A stretch of 34,706 nt of DNA, taken from the IMG/VR virus record IMGVR_UViG_3300032237_001368, positions 1-34,706 of that record; one strand, 5' to 3'. The notes under the pieces were generated by a model that saw only the letters and a program-made list of their open reading frames with translations, did no database searches and was not told the origin of the DNA. The position numbers and the translations under genes were made by a program. Source of the stretch: a virus (Duplodnaviria; Caudoviricetes). Positions 14,598 to 33,795 of the stretch are shown piece after piece (position 1 is the first letter of the stretch; every line of letters starts with the position of its first letter).

Positions 14598-15074
14598 ATG
14601 AATCAATTAGATTTAGATTATCAAGCGCTATTAAAAGACATTTTAGAAAATGGCGTGGAGAAAAAAGATAGGACTGGTACAGGGACATTAAGTGTTTTTG
14701 GGAGACAAATTAGGCATAAGTTTAAAGACGGAAAATTTCCCTTACTCACAACAAAGAAAATGCATTGGAAATCAATAGTTACAGAGCTTCTGTGGTTTTT
14801 ACGTGGAGATACAAATATCAAGTACCTTGTAGAGAATGGATGCCACATTTGGGATGGGGATGTGTATAAGAACTACCTAAAGGAGACTGAGCGTTTTGGG
14901 GAAAAATGGCAATTAACAAAAGAAGAATTCATCGAACGAATCAAAACCGACTCTGAGTTTGCAACGAAGTGGGGTGAGTTAGGACCTGTGTATGGGGCTG
15001 GTTGGCGTAGATGGGGCGGTAAATCAGATGACAAACTTTACGAAGATTATTTGAAAAAAGTTAAAGAAAAGTAG
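14598..15074 (+). CDS. thyA: Thymidylate synthase, N-terminal fragment
   Basis: [35 protein letters not shown]. Confidence 0.93.
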
Positions 15075-15113
15075 TATTTTTCCATTTATTACTATATTTA
15101 TATATAGTAAACA

Positions 15114-15815
15114 ATGGTAATTATGGACTACAAAAAAATACACGACAACCTTATTGAGAGAGGAAAAAATAGAAAATTAAATGGATATGTTGAAAAACAT
15201 CACATTATACCAAAATGTATGAACGGGACAAATGAACCAAATAATTTAGTGGAATTAACTGCAAGAGAACATTTTTTAGTTCATTGGTTATTACACGAAA
15301 TGTATCCAGAAAATAGTGATTTAAGGTATGCTTTTTGGTCAATGTGTCGTAATTCAGACAACCAACAAAGGTATAAACCATCTTCGAGGATATATGAATA
15401 TGCTAAACATAAAATGTTAGAAATATGGCAAAAGTTTAAACCGTCAGATAAACAAATAAATTCTATTAAAGAAAGTTTAACTGGCACAAAATGGTATCAT
15501 AAACCAGATGGAACTAATTTGAGAGCATTTCCGACTGACCCAAAAATTAGTGATGAAGGATGGTTACATGGTAGGTTTGGTGGTAAATCAATTTCTGATA
15601 AGGCTAATAAAGTAAAAGAGAAGAAATATAAAGGAAAGAAATTACCTTCAACCTCAAACAAAAAATGTTCAATAGATGGTGTTGAATTTGAATCGGCTAA
15701 GACAGCTGCGGATTATCTCAATATGAATGAGTATTCTATTAGATGGATTCTACAAGGCAGAGGTCGCTCAGAAAAACACAAAGAGAAATATAAAAATTGG
15801 TTCTATATAAATTAA
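15114..15815 (+). mobile_element. Free-standing HNH homing endonuclease gene inserted in thyA
   Basis: EKHHIIPKC..G.N...NLV.LTAREHFLVH; C-terminal NUMOD-like IDGVEFES; own TATATTTA promoter at ~15093. Confidence 0.9.
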
Positions 15816-15820
15816 ATTTT

Positions 15821-16633
15821 ATGAATTATAAACGTGAAGATGGGACACCTTTCTCAAAAGAAGAGTTCCTACATAAACTAAAGACAGATAAAGAATTTAG
15901 CGATAAGTTTGGTAGCAAAGGAATAGACCAAATCCAAAACCTAATCAACCTACTTAAAACAAATCCAGATGATAGAGGTATAATTGTATCAGCGTGGAAC
16001 GTGGGAGAGCTCGACCAGATGGTACTTCGCCCATGTCATAACTTTTTCCAGTTTTATACGAGAGAAATTCCATGGTATAACGATTTAACTACAATAAAAA
16101 ATGCATATGTTAAATGGAGCCTTTATAAGTTTAAAGACGTGCCATATGCTGGGGATGCTAAAGCAGACACAATTGCAGCTGCTGACAAAATATTTACAAT
16201 AGGTTGGCAAGAAAGACCCGACCCATTTACTGGAAAGCCGTTAATAGAGCTTGAATGTTTTTCATCTATTCCCAAAAGAGCAATCTCACTCATGTGGAAT
16301 CAACGCAGCGTCGACACACCATTGGGGTTACCTTTTAATATAGCCTCATACGCTCTATTGTTGGAGATTGTTGGTAAAATGGTTAATATGGTGCCCGATG
16401 AATTGATTGGAACTTTGGGTGATACTCACATCTACCTTAACCAAATTGATGGCGTTAAAGAACAGTTAACAAAAGAGCCATATGAATTACCAACACTTAA
16501 GATGGGTAAATCTGATGCTTTTTATACGTCATTATCTGATGATTTATCATTACTGGATCAGTTAGATCCGTCAGACTTCACGATTGAAAATTATCAATCA
16601 CACCCAGCAATAAAAGTTCCTTTGTCAAACTAG
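15821..16633 (+). CDS. thyA: Thymidylate synthase, C-terminal catalytic fragment
   Basis: IDQI, SAWN, catalytic PCH, QRSVD..LGLPFN, GDTHIY, YQSHPAIK; start taken as ATG 15821. Confidence 0.93.
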   Translation: MNYKREDGTPFSKEEFLHKLKTDKEFSDKFGSKGIDQIQNLINLLKTNPDDRGIIVSAWNVGELDQMVLRPCHNFFQFYTREIPWYNDLTTIKNAYVKWSLYKFKDVPYAGDAKADTIAAADKIFTIGWQERPDPFTGKPLIELECFSSIPKRAISLMWNQRSVDTPLGLPFNIASYALLLEIVGKMVNMVPDELIGTLGDTHIYLNQIDGVKEQLTKEPYELPTLKMGKSDAFYTSLSDDLSLLDQLDPSDFTIENYQSHPAIKVPLSN

Positions 16634-20099: not shown

Positions 20100-20177
20100 G
20101 GTCAGGTAGCGCAACAGGTAGACGCAATCGGTATCATAGATGAGAGGGTGTTGCCGGTTCGAATCCGGTCCTGACCA
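20100..20177 (+). ncRNA. tRNA-like RNA without a canonical anticodon arm
   Basis: Acceptor GGTCAGG/CCTGACC, D arm GCG..GGTAGA..CGC, T arm GCCGG-TTCGAAT-CCGGT; central segment lacks a 5-bp/7-nt arm. Confidence 0.75.
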
Positions 20178-20191
20178 CAAAAATAAAAGTT

Positions 20192-20848
20192 ATGAAACTA
20201 AAACTAACAAAAACCGGCCCGAATATTTGGTTTACATCAGATACTCATTACAGTCACAAAAATATTTGTCGAGGAGTTTCTGAATGGACAACAAATCGAT
20301 TCACTCGAGATTATCCAAATTTGGATAAAATGAACGATGTGATTGTAAACAACATCAATGCAGTTGTTCAGCCAGACGATATACTGTTTCACCTAGGCGA
20401 CTGGTCTTTCGGCGGAATTGAAAATGTTTCCAAGTTCCGAGAGAGAATCTCTTGTCAAAATGTGCATTTGATTTTAGGTAATCATGACCACCACATCAAG
20501 AAAAACACCAACAATTTACAGGACTTGTTTGCATCTGTTAATCAAATGTTGACTGTACAGATAGCAGTGGACCGATCCCCGAAGCTAATAGCCGACTCTA
20601 GATATGAGTTGACTCTATCCCATTTTCCAATAGCTTCTTGGGAAAATATGAACAAAGGAGCTATTCATTTACATGGTCACGTTCACTTGCGTAGGAACCA
20701 GCGTTTGCATGACGGAAAGTCCATGGACGTTGGCGTGGATGGAAATGACCTGCACCCACACAATTTGCGTGACATCTTGTCTATAATGGAAAAGCAGCCA
20801 ATAGCAAAGCTTACACTTCCAAAAGACCATCACGAGGAAGAAATGTAG
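20192..20848 (+). CDS. Calcineurin-like metallophosphoesterase
   Basis: SDTHYSH, LGD, GNHD, SHFP, HGHVH, DVGVD. Confidence 0.9.
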   Translation: MKLKLTKTGPNIWFTSDTHYSHKNICRGVSEWTTNRFTRDYPNLDKMNDVIVNNINAVVQPDDILFHLGDWSFGGIENVSKFRERISCQNVHLILGNHDHHIKKNTNNLQDLFASVNQMLTVQIAVDRSPKLIADSRYELTLSHFPIASWENMNKGAIHLHGHVHLRRNQRLHDGKSMDVGVDGNDLHPHNLRDILSIMEKQPIAKLTLPKDHHEEEM

Positions 20849-20953
20849 AAAATTTTTTATATGTAAAAGAAATATTCGTAATTTCAATTGAAAGTATTTG
20901 GAATTACGAGTATTTCTCCATACATTTATGTATAGGTAAAAAGAAATAGAAAT

Positions 20954-22252
20954 ATGTTAGCAGAACTTCGCGAATTGCGTGTCATAGTTGATGACCTTAA
21001 CTCAACCAATAGCACAAATGATAAAAAAGTCATTTTAAGCAAGTACAAAGACAATGCATTTTTCAAGCAGATATTGTTTTACACTTACAATCCATTTTAC
21101 CAGTACTTTGTGACACCGGCATCGCTGGAAAAGCGTTACAATGATGATCTGGGCAAGGCAGGAAAAAAATACCGTGACCTTTTCCAACTTTTGGACGATC
21201 TTCGTTACAGGAAAGTTACCGGTCACACTGCTATACAAGCTGTGAACGACTTTGTATATGAATTTGAGCAGTACAAAGACTTGATTTACAAAATCATTGG
21301 CAAGGATTTGGAAATTAGGATGGGCGATTCACTCATCAACAAAATTATTCCAAACCTTATACCTACCTTTGACTGTGCACTTGCTGCAAATTTCGAAGAC
21401 GTCGATGTAGACTTTGTTACAGATAAGTGGTTTGCTTCTCGCAAGCTCGACGGCTGTCGCTGTTTGGTAATTGTGAACTCAACAGGAAATGTATCTTGTT
21501 GGTCACGCCAAGGCAATCAGTTCGAAACACTTGAAAAAGTAGAACAAGCTGTTAAGAAAATGTCTTTGAAAGGTGTGGTTTTCGATGGAGAAATTTGCCT
21601 GGTAGATGAAAACGGTAATGAAGACTTCCAGTCAATCATGAAACAGATACGTAAAAAAGACCATCAAATTGTCAGTCCAAAGTATTTGATATTTGACCTC
21701 ATTCCGTTGAAGGATTTTGAATCGAAAAAAGGCTCTACACCATACTCCGATCGGTATGACGCATTGTGTGAATTAGTTGGTATGTATAACAACACGCTGC
21801 AAATTGTTACACAAACTGTTATAGAAAATGCTAACCAATTCACATCTATGATGGAGACAGCAGATTCGAAAGGGTGGGAAGGACTTATGCTTCGTAAAAA
21901 TGTTGGATATGAAGGTAAGCGTAGTAAAAACTTGGTTAAGTGTAAGTCATTCCAAGACGCGGAATACACCGTAACTGGGTATGAAATAGGCCCTTTCAGG
22001 ATGATTGAAAATAATCGAGAAATAACCAAAGAAGTTTTGTCGAATGTGGTTATCAAACATAAAGGCAATGAAGTTTCTGTAGGATCTGGATTTACTATTG
22101 AAGAACGTGAATATTTTGCCGAACATCCTGAAGAAATTGTAGGCAAAGTCATCACAGTTAAGTATTTCCAGGAAACCGTAAATAAGTCCGGAAAGTACAG
22201 TTTACGATTCCCAACAGTGAAAGTTATACACGGGAATTCCCGCACTGTATAA
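20954..22252 (+). CDS. ATP-dependent DNA ligase
   Basis: KLDG, FDGE, FD, EGLMLR, K.K, VGSGF, SLRFP. Confidence 0.95.
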   Translation: MLAELRELRVIVDDLNSTNSTNDKKVILSKYKDNAFFKQILFYTYNPFYQYFVTPASLEKRYNDDLGKAGKKYRDLFQLLDDLRYRKVTGHTAIQAVNDFVYEFEQYKDLIYKIIGKDLEIRMGDSLINKIIPNLIPTFDCALAANFEDVDVDFVTDKWFASRKLDGCRCLVIVNSTGNVSCWSRQGNQFETLEKVEQAVKKMSLKGVVFDGEICLVDENGNEDFQSIMKQIRKKDHQIVSPKYLIFDLIPLKDFESKKGSTPYSDRYDALCELVGMYNNTLQIVTQTVIENANQFTSMMETADSKGWEGLMLRKNVGYEGKRSKNLVKCKSFQDAEYTVTGYEIGPFRMIENNREITKEVLSNVVIKHKGNEVSVGSGFTIEEREYFAEHPEEIVGKVITVKYFQETVNKSGKYSLRFPTVKVIHGNSRTV

Positions 22253-22798
22253 TGATTTTTGGTAAAGTCAAAAAGTTTAATTAAATTTAAGTACAATCAA
22301 AATAAAATAAACATGTATTCATCAAAAACATCAATTTCAAATCAAATGTTGTTGTCGCCACACACAACTACTAGAAGTACAACAGAATTTGAAGTAATAT
22401 TGTCGAATAAAGAAATTGACAAAACTTCAGACGTACAGAATACGAAACTTACAAACAAGATACCATCGATGTTAAATCGGCTATCAGAAACAAAAACGAA
22501 TAAAGAATATGAAATAATATTTAAGGCTTTTTCTTGTCTATTAATCGTATTTCTTTATGTTATAATTTTTTATATTGTTTCAAACATATAGTATGGAGAA
22601 TTTTTTTAACAGCTTTACATGGAAAGTTTTACTCTTTATCATGAAAGTTATCGCAGTTTTCATTTCAATCGACTTCGCATTTTTCATGATGAATCGAGAT
22701 AATACCATTTCGTTCGTAGCTGGTATTTTGCTTGCAATCGCAACAATAGGCGTGTTTATCGAACACATAAAAAACAATTACTTTAAAAACAAATAAAA

Positions 22799-23671
22799 AT
22801 GAAAAAGTTAATGTATGTGCTAGCTCTCGCACTGTCTTTGAGCTCAATGATGACAATGCAGTCTTGCAAGCGCATTGCGCCGACAGAAGCTGGATTTCGA
22901 ATTTCAAACTCAGGAACTTACCGCGGTATAGATTCTCTTCCACTTTTGACCGGATGGCAGTTTTATTTTCCAGGACAAAGTCAAATTGTAACAATACCGA
23001 CTACAATGCAGCATGAAGTTTGGACCGATTCAAAAGATGAAGGCCAGGATGGTATGCAAGCAATCACTATAGCCTGCCAGGGCGGCGCTGGCTTCCGTAT
23101 AGATGTTGGTCTTAACTACCACGTGGATGCGAACAAAGCGGCGCATATTTATTTGAAATGGCATAATGATAACCTTTCTGTAATTACTAATCAGTATATT
23201 AAGAACGTAGTTCGCGGTTGTATGCAAGATGTTTCGGGTCACATCACAGTAGACTCTATTCTAACAAACTTGCCTGCATTTGAACATGAAGTTGCTGCAA
23301 ATGTTGCAACAAAGCTGTCCGCAGACGGTTTCATTGTCGACGGATTTAATATCACTTCACAACCTCGCCCAACAGATGCTGACCTGCAAGCTTCTATCAA
23401 TAACAAAGTCAAGGCTAAACAAGATGCAGAAACTTCTGTAATGGAGTTGCAGAAATCTATAGCAGAAGCAAATAAAAAGATAGCTGATGCCCGAGGTGAC
23501 TCTGCATCTAAAGTAATTGCCGCTGCAGGCGAAGCGCGGGCAATACAGTTAAAGCAGCAGGTAGTTACTCCAGTATATGTTGAGTATATCAAAGCTAGCA
23601 CATGGGATGGTAAGTTACCAAATGTAATGACCAGCTCCGGTGGCACAATGTTGAATATATCAGCTAAGTAA
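22799..23671 (+). CDS. SPFH/Band-7 domain lipoprotein
   Basis: Signal ending MQSC; SPFH core; coiled AEANKKIADARG; WDGKLP. Confidence 0.88.
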   Translation: MKKLMYVLALALSLSSMMTMQSCKRIAPTEAGFRISNSGTYRGIDSLPLLTGWQFYFPGQSQIVTIPTTMQHEVWTDSKDEGQDGMQAITIACQGGAGFRIDVGLNYHVDANKAAHIYLKWHNDNLSVITNQYIKNVVRGCMQDVSGHITVDSILTNLPAFEHEVAANVATKLSADGFIVDGFNITSQPRPTDADLQASINNKVKAKQDAETSVMELQKSIAEANKKIADARGDSASKVIAAAGEARAIQLKQQVVTPVYVEYIKASTWDGKLPNVMTSSGGTMLNISAK

Positions 23672-23680
23672 TAAAACGGC

Positions 23681-23756
23681 AATCTGTGTAACGCTCAGTG
23701 GCTAGAGCTCCGGATGAAATATGTCGGGTGCGAGGGTTCGACTCCCTTCACAGATT
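23681..23756 (+). ncRNA. Atypical tRNA-like element
   Basis: AATCTGTG/CACAGATT stem, GCTC/GAGC D arm, GAGGG-TTCGACT-CCCTT T arm; 4-nt linker and distorted anticodon arm around GAA. Confidence 0.65.
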
Positions 23757-23772
23757 CTTAAAATTTAAAAAA

Positions 23773-24015
23773 ATGAAGATATTACTAATAGTATTAGTAG
23801 TTTACATCGTAAGTGTGCTACGAGCTCGTAAATGGCTGCAAAAAGCGCATTCAGAAAGCGGCATATATTCTGGATTGACACCCAATGGCGGCGACGTTTT
23901 TATAGTACTATTTCCATTACTTAATACAGTGTTTGCTATTATGATGATATTTTTACCACCATTGTGTGACCATAAAACAATAGACTGGGGCGAGTTTTTC
24001 AATATTAAAAAATAA
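23773..24015 (+). CDS. Small two-TM membrane protein
   Basis: MKILLIVLVVYIVS...; the ORF-track 5' extension overlaps the tRNA-like element. Confidence 0.6.
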   Translation: MKILLIVLVVYIVSVLRARKWLQKAHSESGIYSGLTPNGGDVFIVLFPLLNTVFAIMMIFLPPLCDHKTIDWGEFFNIKK

Positions 24016-24020
24016 TTAAT

Positions 24021-24503
24021 ATGAAAAAGATACTAATTGCATTGTGTATAGCATTTGCTAGTTTAAATGTAAACGCACAAAATTACATTGCAGTTTCAAC
24101 TACCTTGTATACCAATCCCGGAACATTTGCAGCAAAGGCGTCTCCTGCTATTGAGATAGGTAAACAGTTAGGTCCACTATCTGTTGGAATAGATGTTGGA
24201 AAAACGAACTGCTCTCCTGTACGTGGCAAGGACACTACAGTGTATTTTGAACTTCGTCCAAACTTAAATGTGTTTCAACAAGGAAAATTTACCAACACAT
24301 TGACAATTGGAGTTGGCGCAGTTCCATTTAGCACTCAATCAATGATGGGAGAGCTAAGTTATGGTATTGAATATGCAATGTCAGATATCGTTCACTTAAA
24401 TGTTAACTTTGGCCAGTATTATTTCAGTGGCACGAATGTGAGTAGTTCTGCAACATATTTTGGAATTAATATTATAAGATATTTCAGTACGAAAAAGAAA
24501 TAA
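24021..24503 (+). CDS. Secreted small beta-barrel-like outer-membrane protein
   Basis: Signal peptide ending NA|Q; alternating hydrophobic strands; C-terminal YFGINIIRYF. Confidence 0.6.
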   Translation: MKKILIALCIAFASLNVNAQNYIAVSTTLYTNPGTFAAKASPAIEIGKQLGPLSVGIDVGKTNCSPVRGKDTTVYFELRPNLNVFQQGKFTNTLTIGVGAVPFSTQSMMGELSYGIEYAMSDIVHLNVNFGQYYFSGTNVSSSATYFGINIIRYFSTKKK

Positions 24504-24592
24504 TATATGTAAAAGAAATATATCAAATTAATTTTGAATATATTTGGTAGATTGAAAAAGTCTACTTACATTTATGTATAGACAATAAGAAC

Positions 24593-25114
24593 ATGGTAAA
24601 GACAGCAACGGTATCGCAAGTAGGTAAATTTTTCAAAGTAATCACAAATACCGGAGAAGATATATCCAATCAAATTGAGCGTCCAATGCGTAAAAAAGCA
24701 TTGGAGTTGGGCAAGGAATTAGAATTTGACACACAAAATTCGTGCTGGAAAATATCTGGAGTGCAGAGTACCAGTACACCAGTACCGATGAAAAAAGCCG
24801 CGGATACGAAGAAGGCCGCTATTGAAAAAATAGAGGAAGAGATTGTATCTCAAACAAAAGTAAAACGTCAGCGCAAAGTGTATGACACTGTGGAAATGCC
24901 TAAACCGAAATTTGAACCAGGTGATTTGGTAACTGTGGAATTTATCGGGTCAAGACGCCAAGTAGTTCTTTCAGAAATTAAGCGTAATCCACAAAATATA
25001 AATCGTTGGATTTACACAGGTATTGAAGTTGGGACTGGCACTTCAATACCATACATCGGTATCAATGATTCGGAACCGTTCGCAAACATTGTTGAAGAAA
25101 AAGTAGAAGAATAA
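24593..25114 (+). CDS. Protein sharing the N-terminal module of the AAA+ ATPase, plus SH3-like C-domain
   Basis: 27 of 49 ungapped identities to residues 6-54 of ORF 3339; KFEPGDLVTV. Confidence 0.8.
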   Translation: MVKTATVSQVGKFFKVITNTGEDISNQIERPMRKKALELGKELEFDTQNSCWKISGVQSTSTPVPMKKAADTKKAAIEKIEEEIVSQTKVKRQRKVYDTVEMPKPKFEPGDLVTVEFIGSRRQVVLSEIKRNPQNINRWIYTGIEVGTGTSIPYIGINDSEPFANIVEEKVEE

Positions 25115-25160
25115 TTTGAATTTCTCAAAAGAATAACTTATCTTTAAGTATAAGTAATTA

Positions 25161-25282
25161 GGTCAGGTGGTGGAAACGGCAGACACGATGGTTGGTTAAA
25201 AGAGGGATGTATTCTAAACCGAACCCAGTAAAATGGGCTACCCGTTGAATATCATATACAGTTTCGAACCCTGGACTGACCA
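25161..25282 (+). ncRNA. tRNA-like RNA with ~70-nt expanded anticodon domain
   Basis: GGTCAG/CTGACC-A acceptor as in 20100; D arm GTG..GGCAGA..CAC; TTCGAAC loop; own promoter at 25115. Confidence 0.65.
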
Positions 25283-25330
25283 CAAAATTAAAAAAAAACT
25301 ATATATTTATATTATAGTAAATGAAGAAAT

Positions 25331-25417
25331 GCTGCTGTGGCGAAATTGGTAGCACGCGAGGGACTTAAAATCCCTTGGGCAGCAATGCCCGTGTCGGTTC
25401 GACCCCGACCAGCAGCA
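25331..25417 (+). tRNA. tRNA-Leu(TAA)
   Basis: AGGGA-CTTAAAA-TCCCT, long variable arm. Confidence 0.93.
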
Positions 25418-25433
25418 CTTTAATATTAAAGTT

Positions 25434-25661
25434 ATGAAACAACCAAAAGAAGTCATAGTCTTAGATTGTGATGAAAAACGCCTGTACAACTTGCCGGATA
25501 CACCTGTAAAGTGTAAGATACAAGAACGTGAGAAATACGACAATTCAAAGGTCGTGTGTGTTTATAACCCGTCGTATACTTTAGAAAACTCTGAAACAGA
25601 ACCTAGAATTCTAGCTTTGTGTGAAGGGGAGTATGAAGTAACAGACTGGACTAAAGATTAA
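25434..25661 (+). CDS. Hypothetical protein
   Basis: 75-aa ORF. Confidence 0.6.
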   Translation: MKQPKEVIVLDCDEKRLYNLPDTPVKCKIQEREKYDNSKVVCVYNPSYTLENSETEPRILALCEGEYEVTDWTKD

Positions 25662-25665
25662 TTGT

Positions 25666-26217
25666 ATGAAAAAGAAAATTTTAATGTTTGCTTCTGCAGG
25701 TATTTTGTCTTTGGGTTGTACGTCTTTCTACGCAAATCCTAGTATTACCGAAACGTTATCAGCAAACGGGATAGAAGTATCTGATTCAACACCATCAGTT
25801 GTTATGTACAACAGTATTGTAAAATATGCTAATATGTATGAAGTTCCGAAGGAATATGCGTTTGCTTTAGCTTATCAAGAGACCAGATACAAAGGACCTG
25901 CAGATGTAAAGTACAAACATATCATCGCATCTCCTTCAGGAGCTTTAGGCCCGATGCAAATTACGTATTCCACAGCAAAATTATTTGTTGAAGATGGCGA
26001 AATTTTAAATAAAAAGCTTCTTAAGTCAGATATTGATTTAAATGTGAAGATTTCAATGCGTATTCTTCGTGCTTTGAAAGACAAGTATGGTACGTGGGGC
26101 AAGGCATTCGGGGCGTACAATACCGGAAAACCAATAGTTAACAGCTATTCGAGAAAAATTTTAAAGAAATCATATACTTGGGTAATGTTTTCAAAGCCAG
26201 GGGCATATATATTATAG
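25666..26217 (+). CDS. Lytic transglycosylase (SLT domain) with N-terminal signal
   Basis: QET catalytic Glu, GALGPMQI, AYNTG. Confidence 0.9.
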   Translation: MKKKILMFASAGILSLGCTSFYANPSITETLSANGIEVSDSTPSVVMYNSIVKYANMYEVPKEYAFALAYQETRYKGPADVKYKHIIASPSGALGPMQITYSTAKLFVEDGEILNKKLLKSDIDLNVKISMRILRALKDKYGTWGKAFGAYNTGKPIVNSYSRKILKKSYTWVMFSKPGAYIL

Positions 26218-26395
26218 AACAGAAGTTAAAAATGAAAAACTTTAGACTACATAACATACTTAACATTGTCGATAGTAATATCACAGTCCCTGCTACGTGG
26301 GGATCGATTGGCAATCGCAAGTATCAGTTTACATGTATTCCTAGGGTAAATATTAGTTAATTCACTATATATTTAATATATTTCAAAATATTTGA

Positions 26396-26428
26396 CCCTC
26401 GGTAACACAAAATACCGGGGGTTTTTTA
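26396..26428 (+). terminator. Intrinsic terminator
   Basis: CCCTCGGTA...TACCGGGGG-TTTTTT. Confidence 0.75.
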
Positions 26429-26584
26429 ATGCGTATTAACCCCGTTTTTCGCCTGTAACAGTGAAAGTAGTATATATAATAAGGCGTTGATATTAGATTA
26501 AAAATTATTCAAGTATTTTCAAATTGATTTGGTAGATTGGTTCAAATTACTTAACTTTAAGTATAGAACAAATAGACACAGAAC

Positions 26585-26794
26585 ATGAAAGACTTATATA
26601 GTATATTAAGAAATGCGGGATTATCAATTGACACAGCATGCGATGTAATAGACATTCTTAGACCAGTACTTAATGATTTATATATTCAAGTCGAGAATGG
26701 TTTTAAACCACCTGAGACAGAAAATTTTCCGTATCCAGATGATTTAAGAGAGCTTGAAATTGATAAATTTATTAATACCGGTTCTATAAATTAG
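26585..26794 (+). CDS. Hypothetical protein
   Basis: Between promoters 26528 and 26796. Confidence 0.6.
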   Translation: MKDLYSILRNAGLSIDTACDVIDILRPVLNDLYIQVENGFKPPETENFPYPDDLRELEIDKFINTGSIN

Positions 26795-26851
26795 ATTTGG
26801 TAAAACGAAATAAATGTCTTAACTTTAAGTATAGAACAAAAAGAACATTGT

Positions 26852-26985
26852 ATGGCACAGAAAGTATAGGTCAATTTGCAGTAACTAAAGAATGGGCAAG
26901 ACATCTCAGGAAATGGGGTAAGAAAGCGTTTTGGTCTACAGAAAGAACAAAAGCCAAAAGAAATTTAGAAAAAAGTTTGGATTAA
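26852..26985 (+). CDS. Small basic protein; probable 1-nt frameshift after MAQK
   Basis: GQFAVTKEWARHLRKWGKKAFW; the ORF-track start lies inside the promoter. Confidence 0.5.
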
Positions 26986-27024
26986 TCAAAAGGTTTCTTT
27001 AAATTTAATAAAGGAAGAAACAAT

Positions 27025-27153
27025 ATGAGGACATTGAAACAAATGTTGAACATGATATTCAACCACGAAATTTGGTTTGTATGTAAATATTGCGGACTGG
27101 AGTTTGACTATAGAAAAAATGAGTATTGTGATACATGTGGTAAAAGAAATTAA
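27025..27153 (+). CDS. Small zinc-ribbon protein (42 aa)
   Basis: CKYC-x11-CDTC. Confidence 0.55.
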   Translation: MRTLKQMLNMIFNHEIWFVCKYCGLEFDYRKNEYCDTCGKRN

Positions 27154-27157
27154 AAAT

Positions 27158-27229
27158 GGACTTGTAGCTCAGAGGCAGAGCGGCACCCTGTTAAGGTGAG
27201 GGTCGGGATTTCGAAATTCCCCTAGTCCG
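27158..27229 (+). tRNA. tRNA-Asn(GTT)
   Basis: CACC-CTGTTAA-GGTG. Confidence 0.85.
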
Positions 27230-27271
27230 CTTAATATACTCGTAAAAATAAGGTAGTATATTAGATATGAT

Positions 27272-27408
27272 ATTTAGAATATATTGGTTGTCAGAGGACA
27301 GTTTGTGTTTGGTAGTCCACAAATTTTTTATTCTTTTATGAGAGAAATAAAAAAAATATATAGGGTCGACACTATATATGAAAAATGAGACACTTTATAT
27401 TCTAAATT
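27272..27408 (+). ncRNA. Candidate AT-rich cloverleaf RNA
   Basis: 12-bp closing stem ATTTAGAATATA/TATATTCTAAAT enclosing three hairpins. Confidence 0.55.
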
Positions 27409-27497
27409 AATTTAGATTATGTATTTGTTTAAAGTTTGATATTGCTTTAAGGTAATAATAAATATCCGACCGAGTGTGGCGTAATCACACTCAAATT

Positions 27498-27581
27498 GAC
27501 GCAACGCTAAAGTTGGAGAGTTAGGACGGTCTGTAAAACCGTTGCCGAATGGCTGAGTAGGTTCGAATCCCACTTGCGTCA
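27498..27581 (+). tRNA. tRNA-Tyr(GTA)
   Basis: ACGGT-CTGTAAA-ACCGT, variable arm. Confidence 0.9.
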
Positions 27582-27625
27582 CTTATGAAAATACGACATT
27601 CATTAGGCAACAAAAGTCTAATGTA

Positions 27626-27829
27626 ATGAAAGCAAACAAAATTTTAGCAGAAACGACGGATTCTCTTACTTACAAGCTAGCCTTTAGAACTAAAGAACTT
27701 CTTGCTTGTCCTTTGTGTGGGCCGAATAAAGGATGTAATAGAAGACGCAAGCAAATGCAAAGAAATTGGAAGAAATTCCGTAAAACAAAATTTAAATTGA
27801 AACGAAAACAACAGAGACACTCTGAGTAG
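27626..27829 (+). CDS. Small basic Cys-containing protein
   Basis: CPLCGPNKGCN...RNWK. Confidence 0.65.
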   Translation: MKANKILAETTDSLTYKLAFRTKELLACPLCGPNKGCNRRRKQMQRNWKKFRKTKFKLKRKQQRHSE

Positions 27830-27846
27830 AACATAATAAAAATTAT

Positions 27847-27919
27847 GCGTTCGTGGCTTAATAGGTAGAGCACCTGGCTTTTAACCAGGGGGTCGCAGGT
27901 TCGAACCCTGTCGGACGCA
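27847..27919 (+). tRNA. tRNA-Lys(TTT)
   Basis: CCTGG-CTTTTAA-CCAGG. Confidence 0.92.
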
Positions 27920-27931
27920 CATTTAAATTAT

Positions 27932-28002
27932 ACGTTGATGGTGAAATGGTATCATTACAGTCTCCAAAACTGCAGTTGTAGGTTCGAGTCCTGCTCATCG
28001 TG
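27932..28002 (+). tRNA. tRNA-Trp(CCA)
   Basis: CAGT-CTCCAAA-ACTG. Confidence 0.88.
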
Positions 28003-28010
28003 CATAAAAG

Positions 28011-28103
28011 TCCTTAATGGTGTATCATCCACCCCAGACGTGGGGTTAAATTGCACAGCGACTTATAGTCGATGGTGATCGGTATGGAATCCGATTTAAG
28101 GCA
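28011..28103 (+). ncRNA. Atypical tRNA-like RNA (possible TAT anticodon) with hairpin inserted in D-loop
   Basis: CCTTAA/TTAAGG acceptor; ACCCCA-GACG-TGGGGT insert; CGA-CTTATAG-TCG; ATCGG/CCGAT T stem with non-canonical loop. Confidence 0.6.
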
Positions 28104-28115
28104 AGTTATTTAAAA

Positions 28116-28195
28116 TCCAGATTGGCTCAGTGGCGACAGCACTTACCTTGTAAGTAAGAATACAAACACCGGGGGTTCGAGTCCCTCATCTGGAT
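28116..28195 (+). tRNA. tRNA-Thr(TGT), 12-nt variable loop
   Basis: CTTAC-CTTGTAA-GTAAG. Confidence 0.85.
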
Positions 28196-28204
28196 CTTTT
28201 ACAT

Positions 28205-28278
28205 AGTGACGTAGCTCAATTGGTTAGAGCACTTGCCTGATACGCAAGAGGTTATGAGTTCGAGTCTCATGGTCGCTA
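28205..28278 (+). tRNA. tRNA-Ile(GAT)
   Basis: CTTGC-CTGATAC-GCAAG. Confidence 0.9.
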
Positions 28279-28286
28279 CTTTAATA

Positions 28287-28361
28287 CGAGAGGTCGGGCA
28301 GGTGGCTATACCCGCGTGCTTCGGGAGCACGATATCGCTGGTTCGAATCCAGTTCTCTCGA
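28287..28361 (+). tRNA. tRNA-Pro(CGG)
   Basis: CGTGC-TTCGGGA-GCACG. Confidence 0.85.
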
Positions 28362-28367
28362 CACTAC

Positions 28368-28438
28368 GGGCGTGATGCGATGGCAAGCAGTCCTCACTTG
28401 CAATGAGGTATTTTTCGGTTCGATTCCGACACTGTCCA
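28368..28438 (+). tRNA. tRNA-Ala(TGC), irregular acceptor
   Basis: CCTCA-CTTGCAA-TGAGG; G3-U70. Confidence 0.8.
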
Positions 28439-28485
28439 CAAAAGTATTTTTTGTTTATTCAAAAGAAATACTTAAATTTATAATG

Positions 28486-28575
28486 TAGAAAAAGAAGCGG
28501 AATTAAGGGTTACTTCAAAATCAATCTTCCAAATCGATAAAAACAAACACTCTTAGTAGTATTTCTCTTTTTCTA
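28486..28575 (+). ncRNA. Candidate Y-RNA-like element 1
   Basis: 10-bp terminal stem TAGAAAAAGA/TCTTTTTCTA; GCGG-N8-GTTACTTC; TAAGGGT/ACTCTTA; own promoter at 28449. Confidence 0.6.
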
Positions 28576-28580
28576 AATTT

Positions 28581-28655
28581 AGTTCCTTAGCTCAGTTGGT
28601 TCAGAGCAATTGCCTTACAAGCAATAGGTCATAGGTTCGAATCCTATAGGGACTA
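28581..28655 (+). tRNA. tRNA-Val(TAC)
   Basis: ATTGC-CTTACAA-GCAAT. Confidence 0.92.
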
Positions 28656-28809
28656 CTTAAAATCAATAATAATCCATGCGTCTCTCAACTGAGGATTATG
28701 AACACAGATTACACCAGAGGGATTTGTAGTCCGCGGTTGATAAAAATGTTGTCGGAACGTAACTCCAAAACCTATCGAATAGGAAATGTGTTAGGGGATG
28801 ACAGCTCCC

Positions 28810-28885
28810 GCGGTAGTAGCTCAATTGGTAGAGCACTGTCCTTCCAAGTCGGGAGTTGCAGGTTCGATCCCTGTCTACCGCTCCA
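28810..28885 (+). tRNA. tRNA-Gly(TCC), encoded CCA
   Basis: Loop CTTCCAA; GCGGTAG/CTACCGC-TCCA. Confidence 0.92.
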
Positions 28886-28935
28886 ATAGAGTTTTTATCC
28901 GTGCACGGTTCTCTTATAAAAAACCGAGGACACCT

Positions 28936-29006
28936 GCTCTCAAAGTGTTACGGTAGCACATATGGATTTGGCCCATATAGCCTTGGTTCGACCCCAGGTG
29001 AGAGTA
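28936..29006 (+). tRNA. tRNA-Gln(TTG)
   Basis: TATGG-ATTTGGC-CCATA. Confidence 0.85.
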
Positions 29007-29009
29007 CAA

Positions 29010-29180
29010 TTTACTGCTTTGAAGTTGAATAGTGAGATGAGTTAATTTCTATAGGTCAATTCACTGGATGAAAATTCTGTATAAACTCACAGCTATTACA
29101 GTAGCGTTATTCAATGAAAGAGATATACACTTCATGCGTCGTGAAGCCTCTATATTCTCTTCTGTAAAAGAGACAGTAAA
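29010..29180 (+). ncRNA. Candidate structured RNA (~170 nt)
   Basis: TTTACTG/CAGTAAA closes two long arms. Confidence 0.55.
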
Positions 29181-29188
29181 ATAAAATT

Positions 29189-29275
29189 GGTAGGGTGTGC
29201 AAGTGGTCAAAAGCGACTAGTCTTGAAAACTAGTGTGGTGTCAAAGCCCCGTGGGTTCGAATCCCACCCCTACCG
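29189..29275 (+). tRNA. tRNA-Ser(TGA)
   Basis: CTAGT-CTTGAAA-ACTAG, variable arm. Confidence 0.92.
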
Positions 29276-29287
29276 CAACAATTATTT

Positions 29288-29360
29288 GGTGATGAAGCTA
29301 ACTAGGTAGAAGCGCAAGACTGAAAATCTTGAGGAATTGGTTCGATACCAATCGTCACCA
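29288..29360 (+). tRNA. tRNA-Phe(GAA)
   Basis: CAAGA-CTGAAAA-TCTTG. Confidence 0.9.
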
Positions 29361-29368
29361 CATTAAAT

Positions 29369-29441
29369 AGTCCAGAGGTCAAACGGTTAAGATGCCACAT
29401 TGTCACTGTCGGCGGAGCGGGTTCAACTCCCGTCTGGACTG
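29369..29441 (+). tRNA. tRNA-Asp(GTC)
   Basis: ACA-TTGTCAC-TGT; AGTCCAG/CTGGACT. Confidence 0.85.
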
Positions 29442-29449
29442 CAATTATA

Positions 29450-29523
29450 GCACCTTTAGCTCAATTGGTGAGAGCAACGCGCTCATAACGCGGAGGTTAT
29501 AGGTTCAAATCCTTTATGGCGCA
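29450..29523 (+). tRNA. tRNA with CAT anticodon (Met or Ile2)
   Basis: CGCG-CTCATAA-CGCG; two acceptor mismatches. Confidence 0.8.
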
Positions 29524-29586
29524 CATTTTATTTTGTAAATCCAAAAGATTTACTTATCTTTAAGTATAGCAGTTAAAAAATAGAAT

Positions 29587-29787
29587 ATGAAAAAGATTGT
29601 AATTTTCGAAGACGTTATTAAAGAACTTCCGTCTGGTACAGTTAGTAAGAACAGGGTTGTATTGCGATCGATTACGCCAAATGCAAGTTTTTGCGGTTTC
29701 ACAAAAAATGGTGCAGTGATCGACTCGGAAGTACGTAAATTGTGTTCATATCTTGAACCAAAATTTACTGGTTACTACATATCGTAG
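29587..29787 (+). CDS. Hypothetical protein
   Basis: Follows promoter 29532. Confidence 0.6.
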   Translation: MKKIVIFEDVIKELPSGTVSKNRVVLRSITPNASFCGFTKNGAVIDSEVRKLCSYLEPKFTGYYIS

Positions 29788-29798
29788 CAATCACATAT

Positions 29799-29869
29799 GG
29801 TGACTGTAGTGTAATGGTAGCACGAGAAGTTGTGAACTTCTTAGAAAGGGATCGAAACCCACTGTCACA
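29799..29869 (+). tRNA. tRNA-His(GTG)
   Basis: AGAAG-TTGTGAA-CTTCT; G-1 present. Confidence 0.82.
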
Positions 29870-29873
29870 CAAA

Positions 29874-29959
29874 GTAAGGTAGGCGAATTTTGGTAGTTGT
29901 ACCTGTTTTCTAAACAGCGTAACGTAAAAGCTTCGAGAAGCCGTTTAAATCATCTTACA
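29874..29959 (+). pseudogene. Degenerate class-II tRNA-like element
   Basis: GTAAGGT/ATCTTAC acceptor, GGTAG D-loop, CTGT-TTTCTAA-ACAG, GCTTC-GA-GAAGC hairpin, no proper T arm. Confidence 0.5.
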
Positions 29960-29965
29960 CAAAAT

Positions 29966-30046
29966 GCCCCGTTGGTGGAACTGGTAAACACGCCGCACTT
30001 AGAATGCGGAGCTCCGGCATTAGGGGTTCGACTCCCCTATGTGGTA
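29966..30046 (+). tRNA. tRNA-Leu(TAG)
   Basis: CCGCA-CTTAGAA-TGCGG. Confidence 0.85.
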
Positions 30047-30062
30047 CATTTTAAAAATAGTT

Positions 30063-30134
30063 GGCATCATAGTATAACGGATAGTACATGGAGCTTCTAC
30101 CTCCAGAATCCAGGTTCGAGTCCTGGTGGTGTCT
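30063..30134 (+). tRNA. tRNA-Arg(TCT)
   Basis: TGGAG-CTTCTAC-CTCCA. Confidence 0.88.
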
Positions 30135-30217
30135 CAAAAAATTATCTATATATAAGTATGACTATTGTTTTTTTCATTTTAACTTTAAATGAGTGTTGAA
30201 AATTTCAAATATAAAAA

Positions 30218-30291
30218 GACTTTATAGCTCAACTGAATAGAGCACTTGGCTACGAACCAAGAGGTTGTAGGTTTGAATCCTGCTAAAGTCG
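30218..30291 (+). tRNA. tRNA-Arg(ACG)
   Basis: CTTGG-CTACGAA-CCAAG. Confidence 0.9.
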
Positions 30292-30297
30292 CAATTT

Positions 30298-30372
30298 GGG
30301 CAATTGGCTGAGTGGTCAAAGGCGCTGGTCTGCAAAATCAAACAATCATTGGTTCGAATCCAATATTGCCCT
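30298..30372 (+). tRNA. tRNA-Cys(GCA)
   Basis: TGGT-CTGCAAA-ATCA; GGGCAAT/ATTGCCC-T. Confidence 0.88.
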
Positions 30373-30418
30373 CAAGATTGGAAAATCGCAATAATTATAT
30401 ATGTAGAAAAAAAGTTTT

Positions 30419-30904
30419 ATGGTCCGGGCATTCAAAAGTTTAACGAACAGACAAAGTGTAGATTTAATTCCATATATTCAAAAGTATCTGTTGGAAAATA
30501 CAGAGACTGAAATATTCATTGGGTGCGATTCTCAAAATCATGGACGTATAACTTCATTTGCTACGGTTATTGTGCTGCATAATAAAGGTAGAGGCGGACA
30601 CGTTTTATATTCTCAGGATTCAATCCCTAGAACTAAATCAGGACGTCAAAACGCAAAGACTGAAGTTGAATTTCAAAGACTTTGGTCTGAAGTTGAAAGG
30701 TCGATAGAAACTGCTGAATATTTAAAGTCACATAACATCAAGCGTCCGACATTCATCGACATTGACTTGAATCCAGACCCACAGTTCAAATCGAACCAAG
30801 CTCTTCGGGCTGCGTTAGGATATGTTGAGTCTTTAGGTTATGTTGTAAGATGTAAACCCGATGCTGTTTCCGCAACATATGTTGCAGATAAATTGTGTAA
30901 ATAA
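30419..30904 (+). CDS. Ribonuclease H-like YkuK (DUF458) family protein
   Basis: IFIGCDSQ, GGHVLY, RLWSEV..S, IDID.N, KP.A..A.YVAD. Confidence 0.85.
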   Translation: MVRAFKSLTNRQSVDLIPYIQKYLLENTETEIFIGCDSQNHGRITSFATVIVLHNKGRGGHVLYSQDSIPRTKSGRQNAKTEVEFQRLWSEVERSIETAEYLKSHNIKRPTFIDIDLNPDPQFKSNQALRAALGYVESLGYVVRCKPDAVSATYVADKLCK

Positions 30905-30945
30905 ATTTTGAATTAACCAAAAGGTTATCTTATATTTAAGTATAA

Positions 30946-31153
30946 AGAAATTGATGTTGAAAAAGTAAATTGTAAGTATGTTGAATGGGACACTGCCAGA
31001 ACCCAATAAAAGATAGTTCAACGAAAGCAATTGAAAGACAATGGCGCATCGGGTAACTCACTGGGCTGCAACCCACACCGAGTGTGAGAGGTCAATACCA
31101 ACAACCTCCTTTATCCCGAAATGGTAAGAAGTAAGGTCAATGCATCAATTTCT
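30946..31153 (+). ncRNA. Candidate 208-nt multi-domain structured RNA
   Basis: Perfect 11-bp closing stem AGAAATTGATG/CATCAATTTCT; starts at promoter 30907 and abuts tRNA-Glu. Confidence 0.7.
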
Positions 31154-31227
31154 GTCCGAGTGGCCAAATTGGTTAAGGCACCACCCTTTCACGGTGGCAA
31201 TTGAGGGTTCGAGCCCCTTCTCGGATA
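31154..31227 (+). tRNA. tRNA-Glu(TTC)
   Basis: CCACC-CTTTCAC-GGTGG. Confidence 0.92.
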
Positions 31228-31245
31228 CATTGCAAAATATTTTAG

Positions 31246-31479
31246 TTAGACGCGGTCGTAATGGTTACTTCGAATTCGTCTGTTAACGGGCGAGAGGTCG
31301 CAGGTTCGAATCCTGCCCCCGCTACTTTAGTTCTTTATTTTTCGTTTGAAGCGGTTGTTAGAGTTACTTCAACTATCCTTTCAGAAAGGAGATCGGGACG
31401 CAGCAATGCCAAAGACTCCAAAAAGTGTAAACACTCATCTCACTTTAAAAATAGAGTTCGGATCATTATACCGGTCTAG
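31246..31479 (+). ncRNA. Candidate Y RNA (YrlA-like, with T arm) containing a nested second Y-like element (31333-31456)
   Basis: Bulged terminal helix 31246-31264/31463-31479; two GCGG-N8-GTTACTTC motifs; GCAGG-TTCGAAT-CCTGC. Confidence 0.65.
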
Positions 31480-31561
31480 AAATGAGGGTACGAATCATTG
31501 ACGTAATCAATAATACTTTGACAAAGTATTCTCAAACGATAAATAAAAAACAAAATTATTT

Positions 31562-31625
31562 AATCGGAGCGGCTGTAAGTGTTACATCGGTGAATGTCAA
31601 AAACACTTACTCATTATTCCCGGTT
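31562..31625 (+). ncRNA. Candidate minimal Y-RNA-like element 4
   Basis: AATCGG/CCGGTT; GCGG-N8-GTTACATC; GTAAGTGTT/AACACTTAC. Confidence 0.6.
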
Positions 31626-31678
31626 TTATGTTTTTAATACCTCGTGAGTATTCCTATTCACTCGAGTCTTTTTACACG

Positions 31679-31705
31679 AACCGGCCCTGTAAGGTCGGTT
31701 TTTTT
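31679..31705 (+). terminator. Intrinsic terminator closing the RNA cluster
   Basis: AACCGGCC-CTGTAA-GGTCGGTT-TTTTT. Confidence 0.8.
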
Positions 31706-31773
31706 ATGACTTGTTTTGAGTAATTCAAAAGAATTACATACATTTAAGTATAGAGAAAAAATAAAAATAGAAA

Positions 31774-32178
31774 ATGAACTTTAAAAAGCGGTTTCGGGTA
31801 CATTTACGTCGAGCAATTCGTAAAAGTCAAAATGCATTTAGTTCGGAAAAGAAACTTTCTGAAACACAAGAATTGGCTATTTCAGTAATTAAGCGGGCTA
31901 TTTCACATCCAGACGCCAAGCTGTTAACAGCACCTATATCAGGTACCAAATACATTCATTTCAATGACGTTTTTATTCGTATTGAAAAATGTTATGTTAA
32001 CATAATCAATGGAAGTTATTCTTATCACGTTGATATGTTTGATGAAACGCTAAACTCCATTAATCATAAATTCAATGCTAAGTTAGAATTGACTTACAAG
32101 CGTTGGGAAAGAACGATAACAGCAAAAACGAATAAAAGTTTAAACACAATATTACAAGAATTAAACAATATAAAATAA
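31774..32178 (+). CDS. Basic hypothetical protein, co-transcribed with Ro60
   Basis: Promoter 31715; 3 nt from the TROVE start. Confidence 0.75.
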   Translation: MNFKKRFRVHLRRAIRKSQNAFSSEKKLSETQELAISVIKRAISHPDAKLLTAPISGTKYIHFNDVFIRIEKCYVNIINGSYSYHVDMFDETLNSINHKFNAKLELTYKRWERTITAKTNKSLNTILQELNNIK

Positions 32179-32181
32179 TTT

Positions 32182-33795
32182 ATGTCAACATTATCTAAGT
32201 ATTCGAAAAAAGAAGTTGCAGCAGTTAGAAAGCATGAAGATGTTGTAATTGAAAATTTCATGGGCGGAAACTCTTATACATTGTCTCCGTTGACAACGCT
32301 ACGAATTGTAGCCGCTTCATCTATATTTGGAGAACCACAATATTATCGAGATGGCATCGAATCTACAAAAACAATTCGCAACTATACTACATTGATGGAG
32401 TATTCAATCTTCAGTGCAATGTTGAAAGACACTTGTACTGCAGCTGACGTGTTTACGTCTGCGATTGATGCTGCGTTGGATTTTGATTTCAAAGGAACTT
32501 TGGACCTGGCTCTAGAACTGCGCGTAGAGTATTTCATGAGGCTGAATCCATCAGTGATATTTGTTCGTGCAACTGAACACAAAAATCGAGTAGCCTTCAA
32601 TGAAGCTAATCCAGGTTACATGAAGCGAATTGGTAAGTCGATTGCCATTCGTCCAGACGACGTTACCAACCAGTTCGATTACTTCATGTTCTTGAACAAG
32701 TCGAAAAATGGTCTACCATCTATTTTAAAGCGTACTTGGGCAGAGACTTTAGAGTCTTTCTCTCGTTATCAGTTGAACAAGTACAAAGGAAAGTCTTTAA
32801 TTGACTTGGTTCGTATATCACACGCGAACAACGTTCACATCAATGAATTGATGAAAACAGGTACATTGGTTATGCCAGATGAGGATAGGACTTGGGAACA
32901 GTTGAAATCTGAAGGTAAGTCTTGGGAAGAGATTCTTCAGACCATTGACATGCCGCACATGTCTTTGTTGAGAAACCTTCGTGGCATTTTCACTGAAATC
33001 AAAGATCGTGGTGCTGCAGAAGAAATTCTTTCAAAGTTGAAGTCTGGGGTATTGCGTGGAAAGCAGTTTCCATTCCGTTACTTCTCAGCATATCGTGCTA
33101 TACAAAATGGCGGTTCTTGCAACCATCAAGGGTTGATTTTAGATGCATTGGAAGAATGTCTGGATATCGCAGTAGCGAATATGCCAAAGCTTTCCGGCCG
33201 CGTAGCTTGTTTGTCAGACAACTCAGGTTCTTCTTGGGGAGCTATGAATTCTGAATATGGTACGGTTACTGTAGCTGAAATAGCTAACTTATCATCATTG
33301 ATTACGGCTGCCCAGGCCGATGAGGGTGAAGTAGGAGTGTTCGGAGACAGACTTTCACTGAAAGCAGTTTCTAAAAGAAATGGTATTCTGTCCCAGTTAC
33401 AAGAAACTTGTAGACGTGGAAAGTCACAAGGCGGTGCAACTGAAAGTGGTGTTTGGTTGTTCTGGGAAAACGCAATACGTGAAAAAATTCATTATGACAC
33501 TGTATTCATCTATTCGGATATGCAGGCTGGGCATGGTGGATTGTTTGGATGTGCTAAGGAATTTAGATACAAGAATGTCCGATGTATCGATGTGTTAGCA
33601 TTGGTAGAAAGATATCGTCAGACAGTGAATGCAAAAGTCAATGTCTTTTCAGTGCAAGTTGCTGGATATGACAACACAGTTCTTCCAGAAAACCTGTATC
33701 GTGGAGCAATCCTGGCAGGTTGGACAGGGAAGGAGCCCGCGTACGCCAAAGCCGTAATCGACGCTTGGGACCAAGCAGAAGGTATTAAGAAATAG
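32182..33795 (+). CDS. TROVE-domain protein (Ro60/Rsr homolog)
   Basis: ENFMGG..Y, FSRYQL.KY, DLVRISH, TWE, MSLLRNLR, QFPFRY..AY; C-terminal vWA DNSGS...YSDMQ. Confidence 0.92.
   Translation: MSTLSKYSKKEVAAVRKHEDVVIENFMGGNSYTLSPLTTLRIVAASSIFGEPQYYRDGIESTKTIRNYTTLMEYSIFSAMLKDTCTAADVFTSAIDAALDFDFKGTLDLALELRVEYFMRLNPSVIFVRATEHKNRVAFNEANPGYMKRIGKSIAIRPDDVTNQFDYFMFLNKSKNGLPSILKRTWAETLESFSRYQLNKYKGKSLIDLVRISHANNVHINELMKTGTLVMPDEDRTWEQLKSEGKSWEEILQTIDMPHMSLLRNLRGIFTEIKDRGAAEEILSKLKSGVLRGKQFPFRYFSAYRAIQNGGSCNHQGLILDALEECLDIAVANMPKLSGRVACLSDNSGSSWGAMNSEYGTVTVAEIANLSSLITAAQADEGEVGVFGDRLSLKAVSKRNGILSQLQETCRRGKSQGGATESGVWLFWENAIREKIHYDTVFIYSDMQAGHGGLFGCAKEFRYKNVRCIDVLALVERYRQTVNAKVNVFSVQVAGYDNTVLPENLYRGAILAGWTGKEPAYAKAVIDAWDQAEGIKK

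Follow-up and report, generated by a model that had tools for sequence, protein, structure and literature searches.

A phage tRNA array with a 208-nt gap

What occupies the 208 nucleotides between an RNase H-like protein gene and tRNA-Glu in this phage tRNA array? The window analyzed here is an entire IMG/VR virus record of 34,706 bases; its completeness is estimated at 18%, so the record probably represents one part of a large phage genome. It contains 21 tRNA genes according to ARAGORN and 22 according to Rfam, together with one tmRNA and a DNA ligase gene. A Pfam scan of 22 of the 99 listed ORFs identified three RNA-related neighbors, an RNA ligase (PF09414), a HAD RNA-repair phosphatase (HAD_SAK_2, PF18143), and a TROVE protein (PF05731). 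The recurring promoter motif of the window resembles the Bacteroidetes TAnnTTTG element as set out in the available text of PMC10309648, and from this resemblance we infer a host in the Bacteroidota.

The array has several further features. Three of its gaps (27231-27497, 28004-28115, and 29008-29188) fold better than their shuffled versions (z of −2.2 to −2.8 against 60 shuffles per gap); additional small RNAs may lie in them. A tRNA-like gene with a long central insertion lies behind its own promoter copy at 25161-25285, where both ARAGORN and Rfam miss it, and two tRNA genes are absent from the ARAGORN calls, one at 29369-29441 (45.3 bits with Rfam) and one at 28367-28442 (tRNA-Ala by eye). 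Among the 21 genes that ARAGORN does call (20100-31228), tRNA-Gly alone has CCA within its called span, and the gene called Asp at 20100 has the odd anticodon ATC. The phage tmRNA (13581-13971), whose long tag begins ANEVELSTWTFEDAMAF, is nearly identical in the related phages L002-L004. Thymidylate synthase is divided between two ORFs (14598-15074 and 15797-16633) around a 233-aa ORF that has no Pfam match; an intron or a mobile insertion is possible, and the Rfam intron models gave no match in this region (14598-16633).

A bounded RNA gene between a promoter motif and tRNA-Glu

A sequence-only reading of the window had placed an RNA of 208 nt between a phage promoter and tRNA-Glu, closed by a perfect 11-bp stem. 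Both statements held. The RNA fills 30946-31153 exactly, with the promoter motif before it and tRNA-Glu beginning at the next base, and the stem is present with one U-G pair in addition. The locus is laid out as follows.

30419-30904: RNase H-like protein gene, upstream neighbor of the 208-nt RNA
30907..30944, + strand: recurring phage promoter motif (TTTG ... TATATTTA AGTATA), TAnnTTTG-like
30946..31153, + strand: structured ncRNA, whole gene, 208 nt
30946..30957, + strand: 5' strand of P1, paired with 31142-31153 by 11 Watson-Crick pairs and one U-G
30958..30967, + strand: purine-rich junction UGAAAAAGUA after P1
31154..31228, + strand: tRNA-Glu(UUC), called by ARAGORN and by Rfam (62.5 bits)
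32182-33795: TROVE/Ro60 protein gene, 1 kb downstream of the 208-nt RNA

The pattern TTTG-N16-22-TAWATTTA occurs six times in the window against 0.49 expected, a count that none of 100 shuffles reached, and the copies of the motif fall in repeat families D6, D7, and D15. Transcription would start near 30944-30946. A helix of at least 11 Watson-Crick pairs appeared anywhere in the RNA in 6 of 2000 dinucleotide shuffles, and in none of the 2000 did one lie at most 5 nt from both ends. Pairing of the P1 ends has a probability near 1 in the ensemble, and the inner 8 bp are the conserved part of the helix. When the RNA and tRNA-Glu are folded as a joint transcript, P1 and the cloverleaf both form, side by side.

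All three plus-strand frames of the RNA contain stop codons. An antisense ORF of 65 codons (30833-31030) was considered and rejected as a low-complexity reading that overlaps the RNase H-like gene.

Internal fold and predicted pseudoknots

Two domains are predicted inside P1, each with a loop that could pair with a downstream strand (all on the + strand).

30968..31032: domain 1, with helices P2a (30968-73/31027-32), P2b (30980-85/31017-22), and P2c (30986-89/31002-05)
30994-98: domain 1 loop UGCCA, candidate strand of pseudoknot 1
31042..31046: UGGCG, predicted partner of loop UGCCA in pseudoknot 1 (duplex −6.6 kcal/mol)
31049..31119: domain 2, with helix P3a (31050-53/31115-18) and the weak P3b (31057-60/31085-88)
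31062-65/31072-75: P4 hairpin in domain 2, loop CUGCAA
31088-92/31104-08: P5 in domain 2, whose loop holds UACCA (31096-31100)
31122..31126: UGGUA, predicted partner of loop UACCA in pseudoknot 2 (duplex −5.4 kcal/mol)

Every helix named in the earlier reading was found in the sequence. Two of them, CTCAC/GTGAG and GAGG/CCTC, are both present but share G31088, and one of the two must lose a pair. The overall folding energy is ordinary (z = −0.91, with 36 of 200 shuffles folding as well). The helices of domain 1 have ensemble probabilities of 0.55-0.91; domain 2 is absent from the unconstrained minimum free energy structure, where TCGGG/CCCGA has a probability of 0.03. When the four pseudoknot strands are held unpaired, TCGGG/CCCGA and GAGGT/ACCTC rise to 0.85-0.98, and CTCAC/GTGAG stays at 0.02-0.04. 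Each predicted pseudoknot alone is weak, being matched by 948-2840 and 1854-2073 of 20000 shuffles, respectively; the two together were matched by 85-268 of 20000 (0.4-1.3%) in what was a post-hoc test. No likeness between the RNA's two halves was detectable (498 of 1000 shuffles), and eight other gaps of the tRNA array show no likeness to the RNA.

Relatives in assembled metagenomes keep three helices by compensatory change

Twenty public runs from 13 studies contain part of 30400-31800, and we compared eight of them, each from a different study, as assembled contigs; the runs are labeled freshwater, lake, aquatic, or wastewater metagenomes. Outcomes for base pairs were read by hand, changes were assigned to contigs by depth, and loose ends were aligned without gaps. 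Seven of the eight runs cover the RNA body in part, and the eighth (X5) reaches its first 13 bases only.

Compensatory pairs were found in three helices by this hand reading: three in P2b, one in P3a, and two in P4. P2b keeps six of six pairs in X13 record 5, three by two-sided changes and one by a one-sided change. In P3a, G31052>A and C31116>T occur together in X13 record 6 and give an A-U pair. P4 keeps four of four pairs in X8 record 13, two of them through two-sided changes, around the same CUGCAA loop. The covariation evidence comes from three divergent contigs, two of the strands being read from ungapped loose ends, and is a direct comparison rather than an R-scape-tested alignment. One-sided changes that keep a pair were seen in P1 (G31142>A, which in X4 and X6 converts U-G to U-A), in P2a (G31027>A), and in P2b (A31021>G). 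Other changes break pairs: T31150>A and T31151>A disrupt the outer pairs of P1, a change at 31119 breaks the terminal TCGGG/CCCGA pair (P3a) in four runs, a change at 31061 breaks the P3b pair C31061-G31084, and the end pair of P4 is lost in X4, X9, and X13 record 6.

P2c, P5, and the four pseudoknot strands have no listed change in tables that apparently omit changes near contig ends, and UGGUA (31122-31126) is unchanged in the four contigs that cover it. With no change listed in these strands, covariation neither supports nor refutes the predicted pseudoknots. The most conserved core is 30986-31016, and the junction after P1 is kept as UGAAA(A/G)AGUA in the loose ends of X8 record 13 and X13 record 5. 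Loop and junction sequence is kept while helix letters vary, a pattern that would be expected for a tertiary fold or a binding surface.

The flanks are informative as well. The joint between the RNA and tRNA-Glu is gapless in four contigs (X4 record 4, X6 record 15, X9 record 17, and X13 record 6). The promoter motif occurs twice in X5, X7, X8, and X9; in the three of these contigs for which the joint is listed, 50-55 other letters separate the two copies. The same motif also precedes other sequences in relatives. The doubled motif with other letters in between indicates that the RNA travels with a promoter copy and not with the RNase H-like gene. In X17 record 10 (depth 2.2), the promoter is joined to tRNA-Glu by 22 letters without the RNA body, and this linker forms an 8-bp hairpin whose strands derive from the P1 arms and in which U-A has replaced A-U at two pairs. 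Run X17 is probably DNA, and the contig may have arisen by deletion or through an error of assembly. A weak single-sequence model of the RNA (R1) detected it in 0 of 16 related IMG/VR fragments, the ones covered among 20 related loci, and in 0 of 4 large phage genomes. Because X17 record 10 keeps only a stub and none of the 16 related fragments carries the RNA, its body may be dispensable; the same 0 of 16 indicates that the RNA is not tied to the TROVE or the RNase H-like gene. It was likewise not found near the 3 loci related to the RNase H-like gene or the 17 related to the TROVE gene.

A chance fold in a non-functional spacer, to which the ordinary folding energy (z = −0.91) and the lack of a homolog in the scanned collections could point, is extremely improbable and largely refuted by the closing stem, whose 11 bp joining the two ends appeared in 0 of 2000 shuffles, and by the compensatory pairs seen in P2b, P3a, and P4.

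A new family of orphan phage RNA

No family in Rfam 15 matches the 208-nt RNA, either at the gathering score or at E≤10, and we found no full-length homolog in the collections scanned. A pattern scan of three of the 64 viral parts returned 120 stretches, none matched by nhmmer. Two further viral scans returned no match, two others gave 34 and 27 matches that were all chance, and a scan with 14 matches gave chance hits besides one whole raiA RNA and two raiA 3' ends. The five matches in metagenomes and the 37 in genomes were also chance, and blastn against phages and plasmids gave no real match. With the core as pattern and three mismatches allowed, 6 of 401 genomes of the phylum Bacteroidota matched versus three control matches, and none of the six loci matched model R1; in five phage records the core pattern matched once, apparently in coding DNA. 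The patterns of the viral, metagenome, and genome scans had been drawn from less conserved words and not from the most conserved stretch (30986-31016), so the empty scans do not show that the family is rare.

A literature search, with most subscription journals outside its coverage, found no description of the RNA. Fremin et al. 2023 list 8495 viral candidate RNAs of 29-151 nt in the available text (PMC10690425); four core words are absent from four of the supplement files, and a fragment of the 208-nt RNA may be among the candidates listed elsewhere in that work.

We conclude that the locus is a structured, bounded, non-coding RNA gene in a phage tRNA array, as established by its boundaries, its closing stem, three helices with compensatory change, the core at 30986-31016, and the array setting. 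It is a new RNA family of a kind already known, the orphan structured RNAs of phage tRNA arrays: it is non-coding, its structure is kept by selection, and it lies inside a phage tRNA cluster. RNAC and RNAD of T4 are orphans of this kind whose role is given as unknown in the available text of PMC3014915. These species 1 and 2 RNAs (rnaC, 139 nt; rnaD, 119 nt) resemble the 208-nt RNA in being small, stable RNAs of a tRNA cluster, each beside a tRNA gene; they come after tRNA-Arg, whereas the 208-nt RNA comes before tRNA-Glu with its own promoter copy. In sequence they are unlike it, shuffles having equalled the observed scores in 352 and 676 of 1000 cases. GOLLD and ROOL, also described as orphan RNAs of phage tRNA regions with unknown role in the consulted portion of PMC12286853, share the phage or prophage location near tRNA islands, and ROOL shares multiple predicted pseudoknots. 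In contrast to the 208 nt found here, these RNAs form cages and span 659 to over 800 nt, and neither Rfam model matched.

Comparison with known RNA classes

We consider it unlikely that the RNA is a distant, rearranged, phage-borne relative of the raiA motif (ModT) RNA that shares the raiA role. The two have in common a size of about 200 nt, a closing stem joining the 5' and 3' ends, UGAAA directly after P1, and two pseudoknots (predicted here), and several short words resemble the Rfam consensus: GACAAUGGCGC, CGAGUGUG..GGUCAA..ACCA, and AGAAGUAAG. We aligned the RNA with 43 of 46 raiA loci (L273, L297, and L299 were left out), and the mean local alignment score was reached by 9 of 300 shuffles, a borderline result. 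The other measures of word likeness were mostly at chance level, with 1628 and 1122 of 3000 shuffles scoring as high in tile tests, 121-511 of 1500 in a top-k profile test, and 63 of 1000 in a single-sequence test against the raiA RNA of L255. The RF03072 covariance model, whose gathering score is 101.3 bits and which gives the genuine raiA in L255 188 bits, gave no match at E≤10. The helix order also differs. In raiA as presented in the available text of PMC12968392, the PK-L strand lies between P5 and P6 inside P4 and the P1c linker directly follows P4; this arrangement is not found in the 208-nt RNA, where the AUGG strands sit outside the P4-like helix (the TCGGG/CCCGA domain). Furthermore, AGAAGUAAG and the second GGUCAA are altered in relatives (at 31131, 31133, and 31135), and raiA is described as chromosomal, in Bacillota and Actinomycetota (PMC10861870, in part).

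The viral raiA loci are of separate interest. In L247 and L254, near 801-840 of the match strand, the 3' end is all that is present of raiA, and L255 carries a whole raiA (12-217) near the record edge. Together these loci suggest that raiA serves as a prophage integration site.

The earlier reading had called the RNA structural or catalytic. The structural part is supported by the closing-stem statistics, the compensatory changes, and the absence of an Rfam match; the catalytic part is unsupported. A ribozyme that processes the linked tRNA or another RNA would agree with conserved loops and junctions around two predicted pseudoknots and with a 3' end exactly at the tRNA boundary, and still appears rather unlikely. 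The ribozyme models of Rfam 15 (RNase P, group I, HDV-like/theta, glmS, and others) gave no match, and in X17 record 10 tRNA-Glu is present although the RNA body is missing. For the cleavage, host RNase P would be enough. Ribozymes adjacent to phage tRNAs do exist: theta ribozymes are phage RNAs that abut a tRNA gene, as the 208-nt RNA does, but the available text of PMC10879173 describes them as minimal HDV-like RNAs that process tRNA 3' ends, whereas the present RNA is 208 nt long, sits on the 5' side of its tRNA, and matches no HDV-like model in Rfam.

Both predicted pseudoknots are UGGN-NCCA pairings, and their strands have no listed change in relatives. UGGC and UGGU might swap from the RNA's own GCCA and ACCA to the NCCA ends of uncharged tRNAs, so that the RNA would act as a binder or mimic of tRNA 3' ends. 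The tRNA-array setting fits this proposal, as does the T-box bulge, in which UGGN pairs with tRNA NCCA (PMC7583486, in part). It seems quite unlikely to us nonetheless: four-base words of this type are common, and the intramolecular pairing would outcompete tRNA. A T-box proper gave no Rfam match, and neither a stem I nor a terminator is nearby. A broader proposal is that two UGGN-NCCA pseudoknot modules, imitating or capturing tRNA 3' ends, define a new phage RNA class. Such an RNA would work in trans, either to sense tRNA charging or damage or as a decoy for it, or would be a new tRNA-end ribozyme; this is in our view also rather improbable.

The RNA could instead be a cis-acting leader that controls the output of tRNA-Glu and of the repeats that follow, ahead of the TROVE gene. 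No other element comes between it and the promoter, the first terminator-like site downstream on the + strand lies at 31678, and GCAUC at 31046-50, a repeat of P1 3' strand sequence, could pair with the P1 5' strand in its place. No terminator-like site or ribosome-binding site adjoins the RNA, however, and P1 joins its very ends with a probability near 1, the usual mark of a free RNA. We give the leader proposal a low probability.

We regard it as very unlikely that the RNA is a Y RNA partnering the Ro60/TROVE protein, even with the TROVE gene only 1 kb downstream (32182-33795). Bacterial Y RNAs (YrlA) likewise have a closing 5'-3' stem and a nearby Ro60/TROVE gene, and RNase P cuts a mycobacterial YrlA at a tRNA-like module, as described in the available text of PMC4201824. 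The 208-nt RNA differs from them in lacking the GNCGAAN0-1G motif given in that text, its two CGAA words being preceded by AA and CC. There is no YrlA or tRNA match within 30946-31153 at E≤10 in Rfam, and so no internal tRNA-like D/T arms, and 0 of 13 TROVE-bearing records examined have the RNA, so that in related records RNA and TROVE are not linked. The region 31250-31620 offers better Y-like candidates. Repeated units that start with GCGG and contain GTTAC(T/A)TC occur at 28495-28560, 31250-31326, 31349-31445, and 31565-31620, three of them upstream of the TROVE gene, and similar GCGG-starting units are present in L129 (9540-9830). The stretch 31252-31323 is tRNA-like (22.9 bits), and part of 31331-31480 is conserved in three runs. 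These GCGG-starting units are likely Y-RNA-like or TROVE-leader RNAs.

Discussion

The role that we favor, tentatively and with somewhat less than even confidence, is that of a trans-acting RNA that binds a host RNA-targeting protein as a decoy or scaffold and so supports the phage's kit of tRNAs, tmRNA, and RNA-repair enzymes. It is read from the neighborhood, namely 22-23 tRNAs, a tmRNA, an RNA ligase, a HAD RNA-repair phosphatase, and a Ro60/TROVE protein. One precursor containing the RNA and tRNA-Glu would likely be transcribed from the RNA's own promoter (30907-30944). RNase P matures tRNA 5' ends (PMC4201824, in part), and the host enzyme would likely cut at 31153/31154, the 5' end of tRNA-Glu, freeing the 3' end of the RNA. 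Release by tRNA 5' processing, as the sequence-only reading had proposed, is a sound proposal, and the abutting 3' end, here and in four contigs, argues for it. The blunt P1 would shield both ends of the RNA. The two predicted pseudoknots might then pack the domains against each other, with the conserved loops perhaps forming a binding surface. Through such a surface, the RNA could bind or soak up a host RNA-targeting protein, whether a defence nuclease, a toxin, or a translation factor, and translation would thereby keep running during infection.

Among the RNAs found in phage tRNA arrays, this one represents a new fold. Its ends are sharp, it has a promoter motif of its own and a natural RNase P substrate attached, and its length of 208 nt makes it easy to produce and test. 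If the paired UGGN/NCCA strands do engage tRNA ends, the RNA would be a new way for a phage to protect or sense its tRNA pool.
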